Shown one piece after another: positions 2-36,577 of a stretch of DNA of 64,000 nt; positions within the stretch are counted from its first letter, which is position 1; each line of letters begins with the position of its first letter. The DNA is taken from contig CAYXPQ010000001.1 of the NCBI GenBank assembly GCA_964467225.1, positions 75,803 to 139,802 on the forward strand, written 5' to 3'. Source of the stretch: an uncultured Candidatus Saccharibacteria bacterium. GTDB lineage: Bacteria; Patescibacteriota; Minisyncoccia; Phycocordibacterales; PALSA-1337. Under the pieces are notes generated by a model. The model did no database searches. It saw only the letters and a list, made by a program, of their open reading frames with translations, and was not told where the DNA came from. A program made the translations under genes and the position numbers.

Positions 2-1456
2 GAACATAATGATTCTCTAATGCAACAATATCTTGATGGTAAAGAGATTGCCATTGATGTTTTGAAAGCGGAAATTAGAAAATTAGTTATTGAAAACAAG
101 ATTTTCCCAGTATTTACTGGATCAGCCTTGAAGAATGTCGGTGTTCAACTAGTTCTAGATGCTGTGGTGGATTATCTACCAGCACCAACAGATATTAAAG
201 CTGTGAAAGGAACTGATCCAAATACAGGAGAGGAAATATTAAGAAAGCCATCAGATGAAGAGCCATTTGCTGCACTAGCTTTCAAGCTTCAGAATGATCC
301 ATTCGTAGGACAATTAACATTCTTCCGAGTATATTCTGGAACAATTGAGGCTGGGACATACATTTACAATTCAACTACAGGTAAGAAAGAGAGACTTGGT
401 CGTATTGTTAGATTGCAGGCTGATAAGAGAGAGGAGGTAAAGAAAGTCTTCGCGGGAGAGATCGCGGCAGCAGTGGGTCTAAAGGATGCTCTAACATCTC
501 ATACTTTCTGTGATGAGAACAACCCAATAATCCTTGAAGCTATCAAATTCTTGGAGCCAGTTGTATCCCTACGTGTTGAGCCAAAGACAAAGGCAGATCA
601 AGAGAAAATGGGTATGGCGCTTAGAAAGTTGGCAAATGAGGATCCTACATTTAAGATTTCTTCAAACAATGAAACAGGCGAGACTATTATCTCAGGTATG
701 GGTGAATTACACCTAGATATCATGGTTGATCGTATGAAAAGAGAGTTTGGTGTTGAGACAAATGTAGGTAAGCCACAAGTAGCATATCGAGAGACAATTC
801 TTGGTACTGCAGAAGCTGAACACAAATACATCAAGCAATCAGGAGGTAAGGGTCAATACGGTCACGTAAAGATTACTATTAAACCAATGGAGAAGCTTGC
901 AGAAGGTGAGAAAGTGGCAAAGAATGTAAGTAGATATGATGATTTCGAATTCATCAACTCTATTAAAGGAGGAGTTATTCCGCAAGAATTCATTCCAGCT
1001 GTTGAGAAAGGAGTTCATGAAGCTATGGATAGAGGAATTGTGGCAGGATTCAGAATGGTAAATGTAAGTTGTGAATTAACATTCGGTTCATATCATGATG
1101 TGGACTCATCAGAAATAGCATATAAGATTGCAGGATCACAGGCATTCCAAGAAGCTGCAAAGAGAGCAAAACCAGTTATTCTTGAACCTATAATGAAGCT
1201 TGAAGTTCTTTTCCCTGACAAATTCATGGGAGATGTAACAGGAAGCATTTCATCAAAGAGAGGAACAATTGAAGAAATGACAGAAAGAGGTCAATCAAAG
1301 GTTCTACATGCCATGGTACCTCTATCAGAAATGTTCGGTTATACAACTCAATTAAGATCAATGACATCAGGACAAGGCTCAGCAACAATGGAATTTGATC
1401 ATTACGAAGTGGTTCCAAAGAATGTGGAAGCATCAATAGTTGAAGCAAGGAAATAG
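2..1456 (+). CDS. fusA: elongation factor G, C-terminal ~478 aa (5' end lies upstream of window)
   Basis: ORF open to the window edge. The translation shows EF-G domains II–V. It is followed by a strong terminator and lies in the str-operon context upstream of tuf. Confidence 0.9.
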   Translation, partial: EHNDSLMQQYLDGKEIAIDVLKAEIRKLVIENKIFPVFTGSALKNVGVQLVLDAVVDYLPAPTDIKAVKGTDPNTGEEILRKPSDEEPFAALAFKLQNDPFVGQLTFFRVYSGTIEAGTYIYNSTTGKKERLGRIVRLQADKREEVKKVFAGEIAAAVGLKDALTSHTFCDENNPIILEAIKFLEPVVSLRVEPKTKADQEKMGMALRKLANEDPTFKISSNNETGETIISGMGELHLDIMVDRMKREFGVETNVGKPQVAYRETILGTAEAEHKYIKQSGGKGQYGHVKITIKPMEKLAEGEKVAKNVSRYDDFEFINSIKGGVIPQEFIPAVEKGVHEAMDRGIVAGFRMVNVSCELTFGSYHDVDSSEIAYKIAGSQAFQEAAKRAKPVILEPIMKLEVLFPDKFMGDVTGSISSKRGTIEEMTERGQSKVLHAMVPLSEMFGYTTQLRSMTSGQGSATMEFDHYEVVPKNVEASIVEARK

Positions 1457-1511
1457 TATTGGGGATAACTAAATTTGTGAGATTATAAATTAGATATATA
1501 ATATACTCACT

Positions 1512-1556
1512 ACCAAAGAAGGTGTCTCGCAAGTCGAGCACCTTCTTTGTTTGGTA
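1512..1556 (+). terminator. rho-independent terminator after fusA
   Basis: Nested GC-rich hairpin accaaagaaggtg-t-ctcg-caagt-cgag-caccttctttg followed by a T-rich tract ttggt. Confidence 0.7.
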
Positions 1557-1581
1557 AATTATTAAAATATAAAAAACAAAA

Positions 1582-2061
1582 ATGTTCGGTATACACTTAA
1601 AGCATGTTCTTGTTCTAACTCTGTTGGCAGGTATAGCATATTCTTTGCCACAAGTTAAAGACGGACTTTCAGATTCTTTCTCCAGTATATATGTGCAAAA
1701 TCAAGCAGCACTTTTTAATTTTCCAAATATTAATCCTCAAAATAGCTATGGTAATAGAATGATGAATAATCAGGCTATAGGTGTTGGGGAGATTAAGAAA
1801 ATGATAATTGTTCCTGAAGAAATAGTACGTGTTCTAGTCAAAGAAGGAGTAATTCCACAAGACAAAGCAGTTCTTGCAGTAAAAATCTTGAAGGAAAGAC
1901 TATTTAATAATCAACCAATGCCTCCACAACAACAAGGAGCAAGTACCACTAGACCAAATGTAATAAGGGTACAGGTATCTACTTCTTCACGACCTATGAT
2001 GAAATTGGAATTACAGAGATCTCCATATGAATTTCAGGAAAGGGTACAACTGGATAACTAA
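1582..2061 (+). CDS. hypothetical secreted protein (N-terminal signal-like hydrophobic segment, Q/N/P-rich)
   Basis: 159-aa ORF with an ATG start. The N-terminus has the signal-peptide-like stretch LVLTLLAGIAYS. Terminators lie before and after the gene. Confidence 0.5.
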   Translation: MFGIHLKHVLVLTLLAGIAYSLPQVKDGLSDSFSSIYVQNQAALFNFPNINPQNSYGNRMMNNQAIGVGEIKKMIIVPEEIVRVLVKEGVIPQDKAVLAVKILKERLFNNQPMPPQQQGASTTRPNVIRVQVSTSSRPMMKLELQRSPYEFQERVQLDN

Positions 2062-2094
2062 TCTTTTATAGGTATCCTTTTGGGTTTATAATAA

Positions 2095-2116
2095 AGACCA
2101 GTTAAGCTGGTTTTTA
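2095..2116 (+). terminator. rho-independent terminator-like hairpin
   Basis: Hairpin accag-ttaag-ctggt followed by a T5 run. Confidence 0.45.
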
Positions 2117-2134
2117 TTATTTATTATTTAATTT

Positions 2135-5100
2135 ATGAAGAATATTATTAAAGTTTCTGTTTCAATATCTGTAATTTTTGTAGTTTTATTTGGTTTTAAT
2201 ATACAAATTTCAAATGCACAGACAAATTCTAATAAAGTTTTGAGTGGAGCTTGTATTTCTATAAACTCTTCTAAAACAATGAAAATTTCTTCCGGTAAAG
2301 TTTATATTAACGGAAAGGAATATGAATATACTGGGGGCGGCGGAAGTTTTCCAAGTAATAAATCATTTCCACTTTATGTAAAAACTCTTTATGGAAGTGT
2401 ATATAATCCATTGCCTGGAGAGGGTAAGGATGGTCCAGATAGTCTTAAGATTGGATATGTTACTACAGGTAAAGATAGTTTGATTACTGAAATAGTAAAT
2501 GTTTCACCATGGTGTGAGAATTATTCTTATGATATTGCAACAACAGCTACTACAAGTAAACCAGTAATAAAGGTTATTAGTCCAAATGGAGGAGAAGTTT
2601 TATATGTTGGCCAAAGTTATCCTGTAAAGTGGAGTGACAACAGTGGAGATGTAAGCAATGTATCTATTTCCCTAATAGATTACAATTCTGGAACGGAATT
2701 TAATCTATCTGGAGATGTCTCATCTAGGTCTTCAGGTGTAGATGGAACAAGCGTTTATTCACTACTAATACCGTCATATATAACAAAGAATATGACAACT
2801 ACAGGTGATGGTAACAATAAATTTAAAATTAGAATTTATTCTAAAAATGGAGCGGTAGATTCAAGTGATAACTATTTTACTGTAAGATCTACAACAACGC
2901 CATCTCTAAAAGTTATTAGTCCAAATGGTGGTGAGACACTATTAATGGAAGGATATTATCCTATAAAATGGTATGACACTAGGGATAGAAGCGATGTTAC
3001 TATATTTCTCGTTGATTACAAAAGCGGAACTGCAATACCTTTAGCTAGTAATGTATCTGTTACTGCATCAGGTATTGATGGTATAAGTACTTATACAGTC
3101 CAAATTCCAGGATATGTAGAAAGAAAGTTGGCAGTCGATACTAAGAGCTTTAAAATTAGAGTTGATTCAACTGGCGGGAGTGATTTAAGTGATGATTACA
3201 TTACTATAGCTTCTGCAACTTCTTCCAGCATAGACACCCCATGCTTTACTTTTAACAGAGACCTATCATACGGATCAGAGAACAAGGAAGTTGACTATCT
3301 AGTCAAAGCTCTACTTAAAGAAGGATCAATAAGAAATCCAAATAATCTAACTATTAAAAGTGAGAAATTTGATGAATCAGTATTAACTGGTGTAGTAGCA
3401 TTTCAAGGTAAATACGGAATACCACAAACAGGATATGTAGGACCTCTTACAAGAGCGATGTTAAATCGACTTTATGGTAATTGTAATCAGAGTGAGAATA
3501 TTTCTGCTACATTAAAGTTAATTAGCCCAAATGGTGAGTTATATAATGTTGGCTCAAGAGTTCCAATCTCATGGAATCACAATGGTAATCTAAAGAGTGT
3601 AACAATAGATATAATGACTGCTGATGGACAGAAAACATTACTTTCTCAATCATATAATGAAAATCCAGGAAGATATTCTTTCTTAGTAGCTACAGGAACA
3701 CCAGAAGGTAAGTATATGGTAAGAATAAGAACAACCAACTATTCTTCAAGTAATTATTTCTATGTGGGTAGCACAGGAAATTCTGCGACAAACTCAAAAT
3801 GTGATTTTGAGGTAAAATCACCAATAGCAAATTCTAAGGTTAACTTCCCACTGACAGTAACTGGTACTATAGATAGAAGTAAGTCAAATAATGCTGGATG
3901 TAGATGGCAAACATTTGAAGGGGTAGCTGGTACGGCCAAATTTTACGCTTATCTTACAGAAAAGAATCGTGATGGAACAATGAAAGGCTGGACATCAATA
4001 GGTGATTCAGTAATTATGAATCTAGAGAAAGTTAACTCAGATAAATCAAATTTTAATGTCAGATTTAATTTTCCGGAGGGAGGTTTCCAAATTAATAATC
4101 CAGTTAAGATTGTGTTTACAGAGGAAAATCCAGCAGCAATACGTCCAGCACTTACCTTTGAATTACCATTATACTTAGATACCTCAGGAAATTCTGCGAC
4201 AACAACTCCAAACATCTCCAAGGCTCAAATATCTGGTTCATGTGTTCTGAGTGCACCATCTGGTTATGCCATTACTTCAGGTAAATTAAAATTAAACGAT
4301 AAAGAATATTCATTTAGTGGTGGAAGAGGGTCATATTTGCCAAGTAATAGAGTAATGCCAGTATATCTATATATGCCAAGAGAGGGTTATGTGGCAAGTT
4401 ACGTATATTTGAATCCACCAGTAAATGTAGGGGTTGGAACAACTACAGCATTGAAGATTGCAACAATTGTTACAGGAGATAAAGGGGTTATAAGAAATAT
4501 TTATAATCTAAATCCTCTTTGTCAAAGTTATACAAATATCAAAGCTGAAGCAACATCAGTGCCTACAACTAATCAAACAATAAAGGTTATAAGTCCAAAT
4601 GGTGGGGAAGTGTGGCAGATAGGTAAGACATATGAATTTAGATGGAGTTCAAGTGGAATAGATAAGGTAATGATCAATCTTACAAATCAAGATAATAATT
4701 TTGGATATGGTACATTGAATGCTATTGATGCGAGAACAGGAAGGGTCACCTATACACTTCCAAATACTCTACCGGCAGGTAAATACAAAGTATTTATGGT
4801 GGATGCATCAGGTAAAACAATTACAAATGATTCAAGTGATAATTATTTCACAATAGTAAATTCAACATCAGGATATACACCAACTCCATCTACTACATAC
4901 ACTCCATATCCAAGCTATACACCTACATACTCACCAACTCCAAGTCAAACATATAATTCATACCCAACAGCAACCTACACCTCATCACCAACATACACAA
5001 CTAGCCCAACATATTCATCTACTCCAACATATACCTATACACCAAGTCCAACTTATTCATCATCACCTACAGCAACATATTCACCTAGTTATACATACAG

Positions 5101-5218
5101 TCCAAGTCCATCATATTCACCATCGCCATCTTCTTCACCGACTTCATTCTATGATATAGACAGGTTCTCATTAGGTGCAGCAATACTTAGTGCATTTAGG
5201 GGAATGATGGGGTTGTAG
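2135..5218 (+). CDS. large secreted surface repeat protein with a peptidoglycan-binding domain and an S/T/P/Y-rich tail
   Basis: 1027-aa ORF with a signal peptide. It has at least four internal repeats of a ~90-aa module carrying the motif (I/V)SPNGGE..W..G..Y.(I/F)(K/R)W; this resembles the Kre9/KNH-like family (tentative). A PG_binding_1-like segment is present (DYLVKALLKEG..VVAFQGKYGIPQTGYVGPLTRAML). There are duplicated large N-terminal and central modules (SGKVYINGKEYEY... and SGKLKLNDKEYSF...). The C-terminus has ~90 aa of T/P/S/Y-rich low complexity followed by a short hydrophobic end. Confidence 0.75.
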   Translation: MKNIIKVSVSISVIFVVLFGFNIQISNAQTNSNKVLSGACISINSSKTMKISSGKVYINGKEYEYTGGGGSFPSNKSFPLYVKTLYGSVYNPLPGEGKDGPDSLKIGYVTTGKDSLITEIVNVSPWCENYSYDIATTATTSKPVIKVISPNGGEVLYVGQSYPVKWSDNSGDVSNVSISLIDYNSGTEFNLSGDVSSRSSGVDGTSVYSLLIPSYITKNMTTTGDGNNKFKIRIYSKNGAVDSSDNYFTVRSTTTPSLKVISPNGGETLLMEGYYPIKWYDTRDRSDVTIFLVDYKSGTAIPLASNVSVTASGIDGISTYTVQIPGYVERKLAVDTKSFKIRVDSTGGSDLSDDYITIASATSSSIDTPCFTFNRDLSYGSENKEVDYLVKALLKEGSIRNPNNLTIKSEKFDESVLTGVVAFQGKYGIPQTGYVGPLTRAMLNRLYGNCNQSENISATLKLISPNGELYNVGSRVPISWNHNGNLKSVTIDIMTADGQKTLLSQSYNENPGRYSFLVATGTPEGKYMVRIRTTNYSSSNYFYVGSTGNSATNSKCDFEVKSPIANSKVNFPLTVTGTIDRSKSNNAGCRWQTFEGVAGTAKFYAYLTEKNRDGTMKGWTSIGDSVIMNLEKVNSDKSNFNVRFNFPEGGFQINNPVKIVFTEENPAAIRPALTFELPLYLDTSGNSATTTPNISKAQISGSCVLSAPSGYAITSGKLKLNDKEYSFSGGRGSYLPSNRVMPVYLYMPREGYVASYVYLNPPVNVGVGTTTALKIATIVTGDKGVIRNIYNLNPLCQSYTNIKAEATSVPTTNQTIKVISPNGGEVWQIGKTYEFRWSSSGIDKVMINLTNQDNNFGYGTLNAIDARTGRVTYTLPNTLPAGKYKVFMVDASGKTITNDSSDNYFTIVNSTSGYTPTPSTTYTPYPSYTPTYSPTPSQTYNSYPTATYTSSPTYTTSPTYSSTPTYTYTPSPTYSSSPTATYSPSYTYSPSPSYSPSPSSSPTSFYDIDRFSLGAAILSAFRGMMGL

Positions 5219-5250
5219 AAGTTATCAACTTTTAACAGAATTAATTTAAA

Positions 5251-5289
5251 AATATACTTTATGGGTGAAGAATATCCATAAAGTATATC
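5251..5289 (+). promoter_or_regulatory. perfect inverted repeat spanning the start codon of the downstream protease gene
   Basis: The sequence is aatATACTTTATGG-gtgaagaatat-CCATAAAGTATatc. Each arm is 11 bp perfect (13/14 when extended). The loop begins with the GTG start codon at 5265, and a T-rich tract follows. Confidence 0.5.
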
Positions 5290-7349
5290 TTTTCATATTA
5301 ATTTTTCTATTCAGTTCATCACCTGTATCAGCGATTGAGATTCAGTGCATAAATAATGAAACAAACGATTTAGCTTTTCATGTTAATAATCAAATAGACA
5401 ATAGAATTAAATTGTCTGATTCATCAACGGGGTTAAATATCTATAGTGTTAGGTCTACTGAGGCAGGGTCAAATTGGACTAGGAATTCTAATTCTTGGAC
5501 TCAAAAATTATCACCTCTAGATTTTACTGGAGTAAGTGGATCAAATAATGATTTAGCACATCATGCTAACAATCCTTATTGGGGAGGGGCAACACTTATT
5601 ACTCCAAGACATTTTGTAACAGCAAATCACTTTAGATTTGAAAATGGTTCAACTGTTAATTTCTATGATAAGGAGGGAAGGGTAGTCTCTAGGAAAATGA
5701 CTAATTCCTATACAGTTCCAAATACTGATATTACAGTAGGACTACTCGAAAGCGATGTCGATAACAGTATCACATATTATCCTGTTATGAAAATTTCTAC
5801 ATTAGAGAGTATGTTATCAAGACCAGACGGATATTTCTATAATGATTTACCAATAGTAGTATTTAATCAAAATGCACAAGCAATAATTCGCTCCCTTATA
5901 AAAAAAGACACACCAAAAAGTTTTAATCATGCTAATTACGGTGATAGTATTAGATCTAGCTTCACCAAGGACTTAATAGAAGGAGACTCAGGACAGCCAG
6001 GTTTTATTATCATTAATGATAAGCCAATTTTACTTTTTGCAAATTTTCTAACGAATACATCTCCAAGTTTGGGTGATTATATTAATGAAATAAATTCTGG
6101 CATACAATCTTTGGGAAATAGTAATGGATATAATATTACAGAATATACAAATAATAATTTTAAAACATATAGTTCATTCTGTACTGGGCCAGTGTTACCA
6201 TCGCCTGATCAGTTTAAAGTTACAACAAATACCGCATGCTTATCTCCTACAGATAAATTAAAGGTAGATATAACTTGGTCTAAGCCACTAAATTATTCTA
6301 TGCAATCTAGTGGATATCAGTATAGATTATATAAGAACAATCAATCTCCAGATTTCTTATCAATGAATACTTATAATTATACTGATATAAATGTTCAACC
6401 TAATACAGAATATACTTACATATTAAAACTATATTACGGAACATATTCATCAGGTGAAGTAAAATTCCAAATAAAAACTCCATCTTTGTGCTCATCTTCT
6501 GTTATAGTAAATAATCCTCCAGTTGTTGTATCTAATCCAGTTCCAGTTACTACTCCTCTATCCAATTATGAACCTTTACCAGCCAAAAATAATGATGCGG
6601 ATAAGGACGGAATAATAGACGGCCTGGATATGTGTCCAAATACAAGTATTGATCAAAAAAGTTTTGTTAATACCAAAGGATGCATTAAACCAAAAATAAC
6701 TAAATTTAGTTTTTCAAAAGATTTATCCAATATTGATCTTAGAGAAGTTGATAATCTTGAAATATCTAATTCATATGGAAGGGTGTTGTTCACTTCACCC
6801 GTTTCACTTACAAGATCTAATCAACAATTAGACATTGATACTAATTTATACATTGGCAATAATATAGTTTCATTAAATTCTGTTAATCTTCCTGAATTAA
6901 ATAGGGGAGCGATAATTACATTTAACAATCTTTCCTATAGAAATCCAGTAATATATAAAGATGATTCAATTTGTACTACTTGTGAAGTTGTTTCTTATAC
7001 CAATAATACTTTCAGATTTAAAGTCCTAGGATTTTCAAATTATTCTGTTGTAGATATGCCACTTATTCCAGACAAACCTGTAATAATAGATAACCCCATT
7101 CAGGATCCAACTCAACCTGTGACAATTACGCAACCCGCAGTACAGCCAGTAATCATTACTCAGTCAGTTGTTAATCAGAGTGTTGTCCAACAAGTACAGA
7201 CACCACCAACACAACAAACAAAACCATTATCACAACAAGGAATACCAAAACTCCAATCAAATCCCAACATTGAAGTTCCAGTTGATAATAATCAAGTACC
7301 AGATGCAGATATTTTTAATACTGGTTATTTCCCTGAAGATATATATTGA
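5265..7349 (+). CDS. secreted trypsin-like (S1 family) serine protease with Fn3-like domain, thrombospondin-type-3-like Ca-binding repeat and Q/P/V-rich C-terminus
   Basis: 694-aa ORF with a GTG start and a signal peptide ending VSA|IEI. His motif WGGATLITPRHFVTANHF, compared with trypsin CGGSLI..WVLTAAHC. Asp candidate in NTDITVGLL. Ser motif EGDSGQPGF, compared with GDSGGP. An Fn3-like region follows (YQYRLYKNNQSP...TEYTYILKLYYG), then DADKDGIIDGLDMCPNT (TSP3/OmpA-like Ca-binding). Confidence 0.65.
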   Translation: MKNIHKVYLFILIFLFSSSPVSAIEIQCINNETNDLAFHVNNQIDNRIKLSDSSTGLNIYSVRSTEAGSNWTRNSNSWTQKLSPLDFTGVSGSNNDLAHHANNPYWGGATLITPRHFVTANHFRFENGSTVNFYDKEGRVVSRKMTNSYTVPNTDITVGLLESDVDNSITYYPVMKISTLESMLSRPDGYFYNDLPIVVFNQNAQAIIRSLIKKDTPKSFNHANYGDSIRSSFTKDLIEGDSGQPGFIIINDKPILLFANFLTNTSPSLGDYINEINSGIQSLGNSNGYNITEYTNNNFKTYSSFCTGPVLPSPDQFKVTTNTACLSPTDKLKVDITWSKPLNYSMQSSGYQYRLYKNNQSPDFLSMNTYNYTDINVQPNTEYTYILKLYYGTYSSGEVKFQIKTPSLCSSSVIVNNPPVVVSNPVPVTTPLSNYEPLPAKNNDADKDGIIDGLDMCPNTSIDQKSFVNTKGCIKPKITKFSFSKDLSNIDLREVDNLEISNSYGRVLFTSPVSLTRSNQQLDIDTNLYIGNNIVSLNSVNLPELNRGAIITFNNLSYRNPVIYKDDSICTTCEVVSYTNNTFRFKVLGFSNYSVVDMPLIPDKPVIIDNPIQDPTQPVTITQPAVQPVIITQSVVNQSVVQQVQTPPTQQTKPLSQQGIPKLQSNPNIEVPVDNNQVPDADIFNTGYFPEDIY

Positions 7350-7467
7350 ATATGAGAAGCCAAGTTACTATAGGATTGCCGTAGATTTTGTAAAACATCA
7401 AGCAAATGAAATTATTGGAAGAATTACTAGAGGTTTTATGAAAATATGGAGTAAAATTTGACAAGCA

Positions 7468-7501
7468 AATGCGTACTTGCTATGATGGCGAGTACGCATT
7501 T
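7468..7501 (+). terminator. stem-loop (possible terminator) downstream of the protease gene
   Basis: Perfect 11-bp stem aaatgcgtact ... agtacgcattt with a 12-nt loop. The tract after it is only weakly U-rich. Confidence 0.4.
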
Positions 7502-7592
7502 AGCGTTGGTGTTTCTAGGGTTACTACCCTTATTTTATTAATTTAGTTAACAATTTATCTTTAATTCTTCGGGATTAAAGCACTAAAATTAT

Positions 7593-8780
7593 ATGGCAGC
7601 AGAATTTAATCGTTCAAAGACCCATGTTAACGTAGGTACTATTGGCCACGTGGATCATGGAAAGACAACACTTACTACTTCAATTCTAGCAGTACAAGCA
7701 AAAGACGGTCTTGCTACACTCAAGGCTTATGCTGATATTGCAAAGGGAGGTACTGTTCGAGATGCAACAAAGGTGGTTACTATTTCTCTAGCTCACGTAG
7801 AATACGAGACAGCAAATAGACATTATGCTCATATCGATGCTCCAGGTCACGCTGATTACATAAAGAACATGATCACAGGTGCCGCTCAGATGGACGGTGC
7901 TATTCTTGTAGTATCTGCTCTTGATGGAGTTATGCCACAAACAAGAGAGCATATTCTTCTAGCTTATCAGGTTGGAGTGCCAAATATTGTTGTTTTCCTT
8001 AATAAATGCGACATGGTTGCTGAAGCTGATCTACTAGATCTAGTGGAAGAAGAGGTAAGAGATCTTCTTACAAAGAACCACTACGATGGTAAGAATGCTA
8101 CAGTTATCAGAGGTTCTGCTCTAAAAGCTCTTGAGGGTGATCCAGTATGGGTAGCCAAGATCAAGGATCTTATGAACGCTCTAGATACAGCAATCCCAAC
8201 ACCAGTACGCGAAACAGATAAGCCATTCCTTATGCCAATTGAAGACATCTTCTCAATCGAAGGTAGAGGAACAGTAGTAACAGGCCGTGTAGAAAGAGGA
8301 ACTCTAAATCTAAACGACGAAGTTGAAATAATTGGATTCAAGGATACTTCAAAGACTACAGTTACAGGTATTGAAATGTTCAATAAGTCTCTAAAGCAAG
8401 CTATTGCTGGAGATAATGCTGGACTTCTGCTAAGAGGAACAGGCAAGGATGATGTCACAAGAGGTATGGTTCTTGCAAAAACTGGCTCAGTAAAGCCACA
8501 TACAGATTTTGAAGCTGAGGTATACATCCTTAAGAAAGAAGAGGGAGGAAGACACACACCTTTCTTTACAGGATATAAGCCACAGTTCTACATCAGAACA
8601 ACAGATGTTACAGGAGAAGTAACACTAGCTCAGGGAGTTGAGATGGTTATGCCTGGAGATACAGTAACATTTAAGGTTAAGCTAGTAGCACCAGTAGCTC
8701 TTGAAGACAAAATGAGATTTGCTATTCGAGAGGGGGGTAAGACAGTAGGTGCAGGAGTTGTAACAAAGATTGTTGCATAA
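7593..8780 (+). CDS. tuf: elongation factor Tu
   Basis: 395 aa with [19 protein letters not shown] and NKCD GTPase motifs; full-length EF-Tu. Confidence 0.97.
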
Positions 8781-36488: not shown

Positions 36489-36575
36489 GGAGAGATGGGT
36501 GAGTGGTTTAAACCAGCGGTTTACTAAACCGCCGTTCTTTAATTAGAACCGCGAGTTCGAATCTCGCTCTCTCCG
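36489..36575 (+). tRNA. type II tRNA-Ser-like gene with apparent anticodon ACU (unusual)
   Basis: Acceptor GGAGAGA/TCTCTCC, anticodon arm GCGGT-TTACTAA-ACCGC, long variable arm gttct-ttaat-agaac, T-arm GCGAG-TTCGAAT-CTCGC and discriminator G. Confidence 0.65.
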
Positions 36576-36577
36576 CA

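Follow-up and report, generated by a model that had tools for sequence, protein, structure and literature searches.

Organization of the gene product

The gene described here lies at positions 5265 to 7349 on the forward strand of a 64,000-nucleotide stretch of DNA (the window, whose numbering is used for all gene coordinates) from an uncultured Candidatus Saccharibacteria bacterium, a member of the Patescibacteria, or candidate phyla radiation (CPR). It starts with a GTG codon and encodes 694 amino acids, in exact agreement with an original prediction made from the letters of the window, which had read the product as a secreted trypsin-like protease of the S1 family with a fibronectin type III (Fn3)-like module, a calcium-binding repeat of the thrombospondin type 3 (TSP3)/OmpA type and a Pro/Gln/Val-rich C-terminus. 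The combination had been called unusual for bacteria; S1, Fn3 and TSP3 domains together are in fact ordinary among bacterial surface proteins, as is a secreted modular protease taken alone. What gives the gene a moderate interest is the family to which its protease domain belongs, a module resembling the autoproteolytic domain of the nuclear-pore protein Nup98 and bearing a Phe-Ser site, a position next to tuf, and a frameshift that removes the probable anchor at the C-terminus.

The features of the protein, all encoded on the forward strand, can be followed from the N-terminus. Residues 1-23 (5265-5333) form a plausible Sec-type signal peptide, MKNIHKVYLFILIFLFSSSPVSA, followed by IEIQC; as read from the sequence it has a basic n-region, a hydrophobic core of 13 residues and a V-S-A cleavage motif, in keeping with the predicted secretion. 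Next comes a divergent serine-protease domain of the chymotrypsin fold (PA clan) at residues 28-306 (5346-6182), with the catalytic residues His122 (5628-5630), Asp155 (5727-5729) and Ser242 (5988-5990), and then an Fn3 domain at residues 312-409 (6198-6491), flanked by the conserved Cys325 and Cys409. A Pro/Val-rich linker at residues 410-441 (6492-6587), with seven Val and seven Pro in the 28 residues 413-440 and a model pLDDT (predicted local distance difference test score) of ~48-55, leads to a single predicted calcium-binding repeat of the TSP3/OmpA type at residues 442-473 (6588-6683). The core of this repeat, DADKDGIIDGLDMC (residues 444-457), fits the pattern DxDxDGxxDxxDxC exactly, and the repeat as a whole reads D444xDxDGxxDxxDxC457-PNT...G-C473.

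The domains named in the original prediction are thus all recognizable, but it had passed over a 125-residue domain between the repeat and the tail. Residues 474-597 (6684-7055) are a homologue of the Nup98/Nup145-type autoproteolytic domain (peptidase S59), with a putative scissile bond at Phe590-Ser591 (7032-7037). The protein ends in a low-complexity stalk rich in Gln, Pro, Val and Ile (residues 598-694; 7056-7349; pLDDT 53-69), closed by a premature TGA. The last 94 residues hold 15 Pro, 15 Gln, 12 Val and 11 Ile, and homologues have repeats of the (V/I)QP type at the stalk position; the Pro/Gln/Val-rich tail is therefore borne out in composition, but its length has been cut short by the frameshift. 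All eight cysteines of the protein fall into four plausible domain-local pairs (predicted disulfides 28-306, 325-409, 457-473 and 570-573), as would fit an extracytoplasmic protein.

The Fn3, TSP3 and Nup98-like modules

A profile built from residues 301-625 and homologous segments (A3) matched, among the PDB sequences, the Fn3 domains of tenascin-R (E 1.3e-5) and NagJ (1.8e-5), and the TSP3-type repeats of the OmpA-family protein 5wtl (E 1.5e-5). More surprising were its matches to the autoproteolytic domains of Nup98, Nup116 and Nup145 (1.4e-4 to 1e-3). Among 19 A3 segments searched against Pfam, TSP_3 was matched by 15, fn3 by 5 and PF04096 (Nup98-96 autopeptidase S59) by 14, the last with a best E of 1.6e-9. 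The Fn3-like module is thereby upheld by profile similarity together with its Fn3 beta-sandwich, and the calcium-binding repeat, whose binding of calcium is predicted from its motif, by the exact pattern and the profile match to 5wtl. With the TSP type-3 and OmpA-like repeats (PF02412, 5wtl) it shares the DxDxDGxxDxxDxC-P motif and a following Cys; it differs from them in being present as a single copy, fused with the S59-like sandwich, and in staying under the gathering score of the Pfam model. A TSP3-type repeat precedes the S59-like module in 14 of the module-bearing proteins examined, and the two parts form one composite module.

For the Nup98-like module alone, a profile (A4) was made from 13 sequences that are 32-84% identical to the query. 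Its matches in the PDB at E<=1 comprise 17 sequences, 16 of which are nucleoporin autoproteolytic domains, and those to Nup98, Nup116 and Nup145 have E values from 2.8e-4 to 7e-3. HHalign aligned the module with the human Nup98 domain at 94% probability (E 1.2e-7; the human sequence agrees with the PDB alignments), setting FRFKVLGF-SNYSVVD on WVFKVSHF-SKYGLQD with the cleavage sites, marked here by hyphens, in register. The gathering score of PF04096 is exceeded by five homologues of the module (29.6-32.8 bits); two proteins are matched as far as profile position 147 of 148. Residues 474-597 have the Nup98-type beta-sandwich fold. One relative already carries a PF04096 label from automatic Pfam annotation, so that the databases hold the similarity in latent form.

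A survey published in 2005 (PMC1257468), which covered the prokaryotic relatives of nuclear-pore proteins, gives none for Nup98, and in the full-text literature searched we found no description of a prokaryotic domain of the Nup98 type. An indexed homologue search with A4 returned five proteins only, and the module was absent within 3 kb in all 80 named genome loci. Compared with Nup98, Nup145N and Nup116 (S59, PF04096), the module is bacterial and apparently exported, has Gly in the place of the motif His, and has a shorter distal half that contains a CxxC pair. Its surroundings differ as well: whereas Nup98 has FG repeats upstream and Nup96 downstream, neither is found here, and the module is preceded by the TSP3 repeat and followed by the Gln/Pro-rich stalk. 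In the bacterial proteins, a stalk and a wall or membrane anchor take the place of Nup96. A bacterial domain of this type bears on the origin of nuclear-pore parts, and it would offer a small and easily testable self-cleaving module.

Does the module cleave itself?

Around the putative scissile bond, in the 13-sequence alignment, Phe590, Ser591 and Tyr593 are present in every sequence and Gly589 in 12 (the other has Ser); of 20 module-bearing proteins, two have SFS.Y at the site and the others GFS.Y, and the strand S-x-Y-x-V/I-E, which follows the site, is conserved. At sites of the Nup98 type, strain on the bond comes from the Phe, which is anchored in the interior, and nucleophilic attack from the Ser; both residues are essential (PMC3210808). 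The His is more dispensable, since cleavage of Nup98 is only slightly affected by the H862A and H862Q changes, and CARD8 and NLRP1 cleave at SF-S without a His (PMC3210808); the change of His to Gly seen here is therefore compatible with cleavage. The ZU5/FIIND domains of PIDD, CARD8 and NLRP1 offer a further parallel, as they are likewise beta-sandwiches in which, at an xF-S site, the Ser attacks a bond put under strain by a buried Phe; their fragments stay associated, and we propose the same for the module. The SEA domains of mucins and the GAIN/GPS domains of adhesion G-protein-coupled receptors would follow the same logic of a self-cut module between head and anchor with a sheddable, non-covalent junction, by analogy only, their folds being unrelated.

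One natural homologue simply ends at this point. In P0163 (locus L003, 2-355), a genuine TAA stop falls directly at the Phe aligned with the P1 residue, which marks the Phe-Ser junction as a real structural boundary. At the same locus, the next gene starts 38 nucleotides after the stop and has a signal peptide of its own. Another protein, P0056 (2,446 residues), likewise ends in ...GF, which may be a contig end. Yeast Nup116 and Nup100 end at the same Phe position.

The strongest rival reading takes the module as a beta-sandwich with a structural or binding role, in which a peptide strand is docked but not cut, as in yeast Nup116 and Nup100 or the uncleaved trypanosome Nup98-96, so that the protein stays a single chain. 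The end of P0163 at the Phe means that the fold can work without cleavage, and such homologues need no cut; some eukaryotic proteins of the S59 fold, for example one in T. brucei, do not cleave; the motif His is replaced by Gly; and the region of the further Lys and Asn with a suggested catalytic role in Nup98 is shorter here, with neither residue mappable. On the other hand, Phe-Ser-x-Tyr is invariant in sequences otherwise as little as 32% (and up to 84%) identical to the query, Nup98 still cleaves with the H862A change as do SF-S sites, and the conservation of the strand after the site is what would be expected of a cleavage product that is retained. We rate the non-cleaving sandwich as a serious contender, yet one that stands distinctly below an even chance. 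Autocleavage at Phe590-Ser591, as judged from the sequence, would have roughly even odds or slightly better.

The protease domain and its family

The N-terminal domain escapes the usual databases. Direct searches with the query in Pfam, NCBIfam, PHROGs and the PDB sequences gave no match for it, and the Pfam models Trypsin and Trypsin_2 found nothing at E<=10 in the query and at E<=1 in ten diverse relatives. The HMMER search against Pfam by which the original prediction was to be checked therefore failed on the query, with Trypsin and fn3 unmatched and TSP_3 below its threshold. An indexed homologue search returned 26 proteins which, where named, come only from Paceibacterota or Patescibacteria, and an exhaustive phmmer search with residues 1-327 found 1,596 cluster representatives (clusters at 50% identity) at E<=1e-3, the region common to the members being residues ~28-306. 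Here is a very large family, predicted to be exported, with a perfectly conserved triad, that is captured by no Pfam, NCBIfam or PHROG model; for want of a family model, annotation pipelines label its members as hypothetical or "Ig-like/peptidoglycan-binding".

Among species-representative genomes, the nearest relatives of the protease family are in Patescibacteria, and distant ones abound in Verrucomicrobiota, Planctomycetota, Lentisphaerae and Omnitrophota, with some in cyanobacteria and Bacteroidales. Cultured carriers include Luteolibacter and Anabaena lutea; in Luteolibacter sp. AS25, the domain occurs as a 273-residue stand-alone version of the lipoprotein type amid ordinary chromosomal genes. 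Dockerin repeats or a Big_2 module are present in some further members. The possibility that relatives of ~390 residues with Big_2 and protease domains are phage proteins was considered and is not supported: 50,697 phage records held one weak match to a hypothetical protein for these relatives and none for the query, and the stand-alone Luteolibacter version in its ordinary chromosomal context also speaks against a phage origin. One giant surface protein of 3,350 residues (P0027) carries both the protease domain (residues 1313-1606) and the TSP3/Nup98-like cassette (2942-3126), along with two C-terminal PG_binding_1 domains and many Ig/Fn3 and pectate-lyase-like regions.

This distribution bears on the role that had been assigned to the gene, that of a trypsin-family enzyme with which an episymbiotic CPR cell attacks or holds the surface of its host. 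The protein is modular, apparently extracytoplasmic and encoded in a Patescibacteria genome, and adhesin-like modules of the Ig, cadherin, PKD and dockerin types are joined to its relatives; these features would all suit such a role. When the proposed look at phylogenetic distribution is taken, however, the protease family proves not to be specific to CPR, with frequent members in Verrucomicrobiota and Planctomycetota, so that the host-surface role is a guess; free-living Verrucomicrobiota, Planctomycetota and cyanobacteria have the catalytic family in abundance, and the frequent fusion to PG_binding_1 points at least equally to the wall of the cell itself. We regard the host-surface role as unlikely.

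The case for a working protease is made by conservation and fold. The motifs quoted in the original prediction are all present, TANHF at residues 119-123 (with His122), NTDITVGLL at 153-161 (Asp155) and GDSGQPGF at 240-247 (Ser242), and all three are invariant in 24 close homologues. Across 152 representatives with pairwise identities under 50%, His122, Asp155 and Ser242 never vary (152 of 152 for each), so that the resemblance is no accident, and their neighbours in the GDSG motif are nearly as constant (G240 96%, D241 99%, G243 99%). The predicted structure of the domain is confident (pLDDT 91.7); in this model the His sits in a turn that follows a strand, the Asp where a strand begins, and the Ser in the loop before the last pair of strands and the C-terminal helix, which are the secondary-structure positions of His57, Asp102 and Ser195. 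The family profile reached a best E of 0.19 against the PDB, and 30 of its 31 weak, sub-threshold matches are PA-clan proteases, in whose alignments the His motif of the family falls on His57 and GDSG on Ser195. With profiles A1 and A2, HHalign against bovine trypsin and chymotrypsinogen aligned the His57 block alone, at 5-22% probability; the homology to S1 therefore rests on structure, not on sequence.

The domain also has its own departures from S1. Its identity to S1 enzymes (the bacterial trypsin 5dj7, the V8/Glu endopeptidase 1qy6, the SPATE autotransporter protease domain 3ak5) is 9-19%; the family has ..A.HF instead of AAHC, so that the Cys42-Cys58 disulfide of the His loop is absent (TANHF contains no Cys); and a conserved, family-specific N-terminal extension of ~85 residues precedes the barrel, with no activation N-terminus of the Ile16 type. 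From sequence conservation and the model we conclude that the domain has a chymotrypsin fold with an intact triad under strong selection, and that it constitutes an unmodelled family of its own instead of belonging to PF00089; of the "trypsin-like S1" label, the fold and the H-D-S triad stand, while membership by sequence does not. It could be imagined that the domain is catalytically dead and serves as a binding module, as in HGF, haptoglobin or the trypsin-like scaffolds of the Streptomyces umbrella toxin UmbA, the whole protein then being an adhesin. Pseudo-proteases typically lose triad residues, however, and a triad kept in 152 of 152 representatives, with 96-100% conservation of G-D-S-G, is expected only under selection for catalysis, which makes a dead domain very improbable.

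A displaced C-terminal helix

The stop codon at 7347-7349 is the product of a frameshift; comparison with orthologues indicates that the ancestral frame ran on to 7461. The frame is broken in an (AT)4 run at 7339-7346 that is 2 nucleotides shorter than in the orthologue of locus L005, and a conserved amphipathic segment, IEYEKPSYYRIAVDFVKHQANEIIGRITRGFMKIWSKI, lies intact in the +1 frame at 7345-7461. All close orthologues end with a segment of ~37 residues of the form [YF]EKPSY..I..[FY]VK.....I..RI..GF...., and the displaced segment is colinear with the C-termini of P0002-P0005 and P0162 (22 of 38 residues identical to P0002). The DNA at the break is identical in two separately assembled read sets (L001 and L002). 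In the former, the gene caller annotates the displaced segment as a separate open reading frame (ORF) of 52 residues.

With its orthologue the displaced segment still shares 58% identity, as compared with 66% over the whole protein, and the shift is therefore recent or at the strain level. That the whole gene is a decaying pseudogene whose frameshift marks a lost function is accordingly quite improbable, for although the stop is premature relative to all orthologues, the 694-codon frame is intact with every catalytic and structural motif, the out-of-frame tail is still open and little diverged, and the loss is limited to the last ~37 residues. Two ways in which the stop might be bypassed were also considered and rejected. 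A programmed +1 frameshift at UAU-UGA-A would need tRNA-Tyr to re-pair on AUU, which it cannot do, and no Shine-Dalgarno-like stimulator lies upstream; reading UGA as a sense codon gives, in frame, an unrelated sequence that meets a stop 8 codons on.

If the segment is modelled as a helix, its hydrophobic moment comes to 0.68-0.80, as compared with a protein-wide value of 0.18 +/- 0.10 and a maximum of 0.51. E. coli PBP5 and PBP6 (penicillin-binding proteins) are anchored to the membrane by C-terminal amphipathic helices. By analogy with these exported enzymes, which also have a short basic amphipathic helix at the C-terminal extreme, the helix was probably the envelope anchor of the ancestral protein, of the in-plane membrane type; the sequences are unrelated, and anchoring here would follow from the hydrophobic moment.

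Proposed mode of action

Taking these features together, we think it probable that the gene encodes a Sec-exported, modular serine endopeptidase of the patescibacterial cell envelope, with a Nup98-like self-cleaving joint and a helix anchor. In the scheme we propose, the helix and the stalk would hold the exported protein on the envelope with the protease head outward. By an intramolecular N-to-O acyl shift at Ser591, the Nup98-like module would then cut the Phe590-Ser591 bond. The strand that now begins with Ser591, S-x-Y-x-V/I-E, would stay docked in the sandwich, as in Nup98-Nup96. Head and anchor would from then on be joined non-covalently only, and the head could be shed. In the present genome, where the loss of 2 nucleotides removes the anchor helix, a released instead of a tethered enzyme is predicted.

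In other members of the family, the module typically sits between large ectodomains rich in Ig, cadherin or PKD domains and a low-complexity linker with a C-terminal PG_binding_1 domain, and its placement there, with the head on one side and the anchor on the other, points to a non-covalent joint that cleaves itself. Large surface proteins are central to the epibiotic lifestyle of CPR bacteria, and the recurrent order of head, TSP3 repeat, S59-like module, stalk and anchor suggests a general way in which these organisms mount, and perhaps shed, such proteins. We would go one step further, tentatively and at slightly less than an even chance, and propose that bacteria have a functional counterpart of the Nup98 autoproteolytic domain, which together with the calcium-binding TSP3 repeat would serve as a self-cleaving, non-covalent "breakaway" joint between the large extracellular heads (here a protease) and the wall or membrane anchors of CPR surface proteins. 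If this is true, the S59 family, treated until now as a nuclear-pore invention of eukaryotes, gains an extracytoplasmic relative in prokaryotes, and possibly an evolutionary source.

Besides the points already raised on cleavage, several others weigh against this picture. The query itself stays below the Pfam threshold for fn3, reaches 16.3-17.2 bits with TSP_3 (PF02412; cut-off 25) and scores 16.9 bits with PF04096 (Nucleoporin2; gathering score 28.4). Catalytic activity is a prediction from sequence, and the geometry of the triad was judged by secondary-structure position in the model. The anchoring role of the helix is argued from amphipathicity and from the analogy with other proteins only, and an assembly error common to assemblies from related samples could, in principle, have produced the frameshift.

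Genomic context

The protease gene and a secreted neighbour of 1027 residues lie between fusA and tuf, within the classical rpsL-rpsG-fusA-tuf arrangement, and the pair is again found immediately upstream of tuf-rpsJ-rplC in genomes with protease orthologues of 66% and 49% identity. The neighbour, encoded upstream at 2135-5218 on the forward strand, has by Pfam four Ig-like repeats of the Kre9/KNH type and a central PG_binding_1 domain, together with a long stalk rich in Ser, Thr, Pro and Tyr; orthologues stand at the same position in loci L005 (76% identity) and L004. They share its C-terminal motif, (F/Y)xDxDRFSLGAAIL.AFR.MMGL, which might serve as another type of anchor or sorting signal at the C-terminus. 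A C-terminal sorting motif common to the protease and this neighbour was considered and discarded, as a hidden Markov model of the displaced segment matches nothing else in the window and the neighbour has the motif of its own.

An RNA hairpin of 16 base pairs surrounds the GTG start of the protease gene (5252-5288, forward strand; found by a pattern scan and folding). Its folding energy is -16.9 kcal/mol (z -5.9), and equivalent hairpins are found at the ATG starts of the orthologues in L004 (~1524-1560; z -6.8) and L005 (~2897-2947; z -8.4). The hairpin, behind which lies a U-rich run, could block translation, or it could attenuate or terminate transcription coming from the upstream gene.

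At the other end of the gene, directly after the end of the restored ORF, a strong, near-consensus sigma-70-like promoter lies at 7458-7486 (TTGACA-17-TATGAT with a TG extended -10, 11 of 12 matches), ~107 nucleotides before tuf, and a weak terminator-like hairpin is present at 7517-7530. Three genes in all are inserted between fusA and tuf (window 20-8780; L001 2224-12644): the protease gene, the gene for the 1027-residue surface protein and, between fusA and this pair, an ORF of 159 residues (1582-2061) with an N-terminal hydrophobic segment and no Pfam family in the annotation of L001. A terminator-like hairpin of 15 base pairs follows this ORF at 2088-2120.

Some RNA genes elsewhere in the window may also be recorded. 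ARAGORN reports a tRNA-Ile with the anticodon UAU (31877-31951) and a tRNA-Ser with the anticodon ACU (36489-36576), near a tRNA-Ser(GCU) at 34917; the UAU and ACU anticodons are both unusual in bacteria. A transfer-messenger RNA gene lies on the reverse strand at 28421-28827, with a long predicted tag peptide, AKVKSIVSPYFGSRDFTFALATA.

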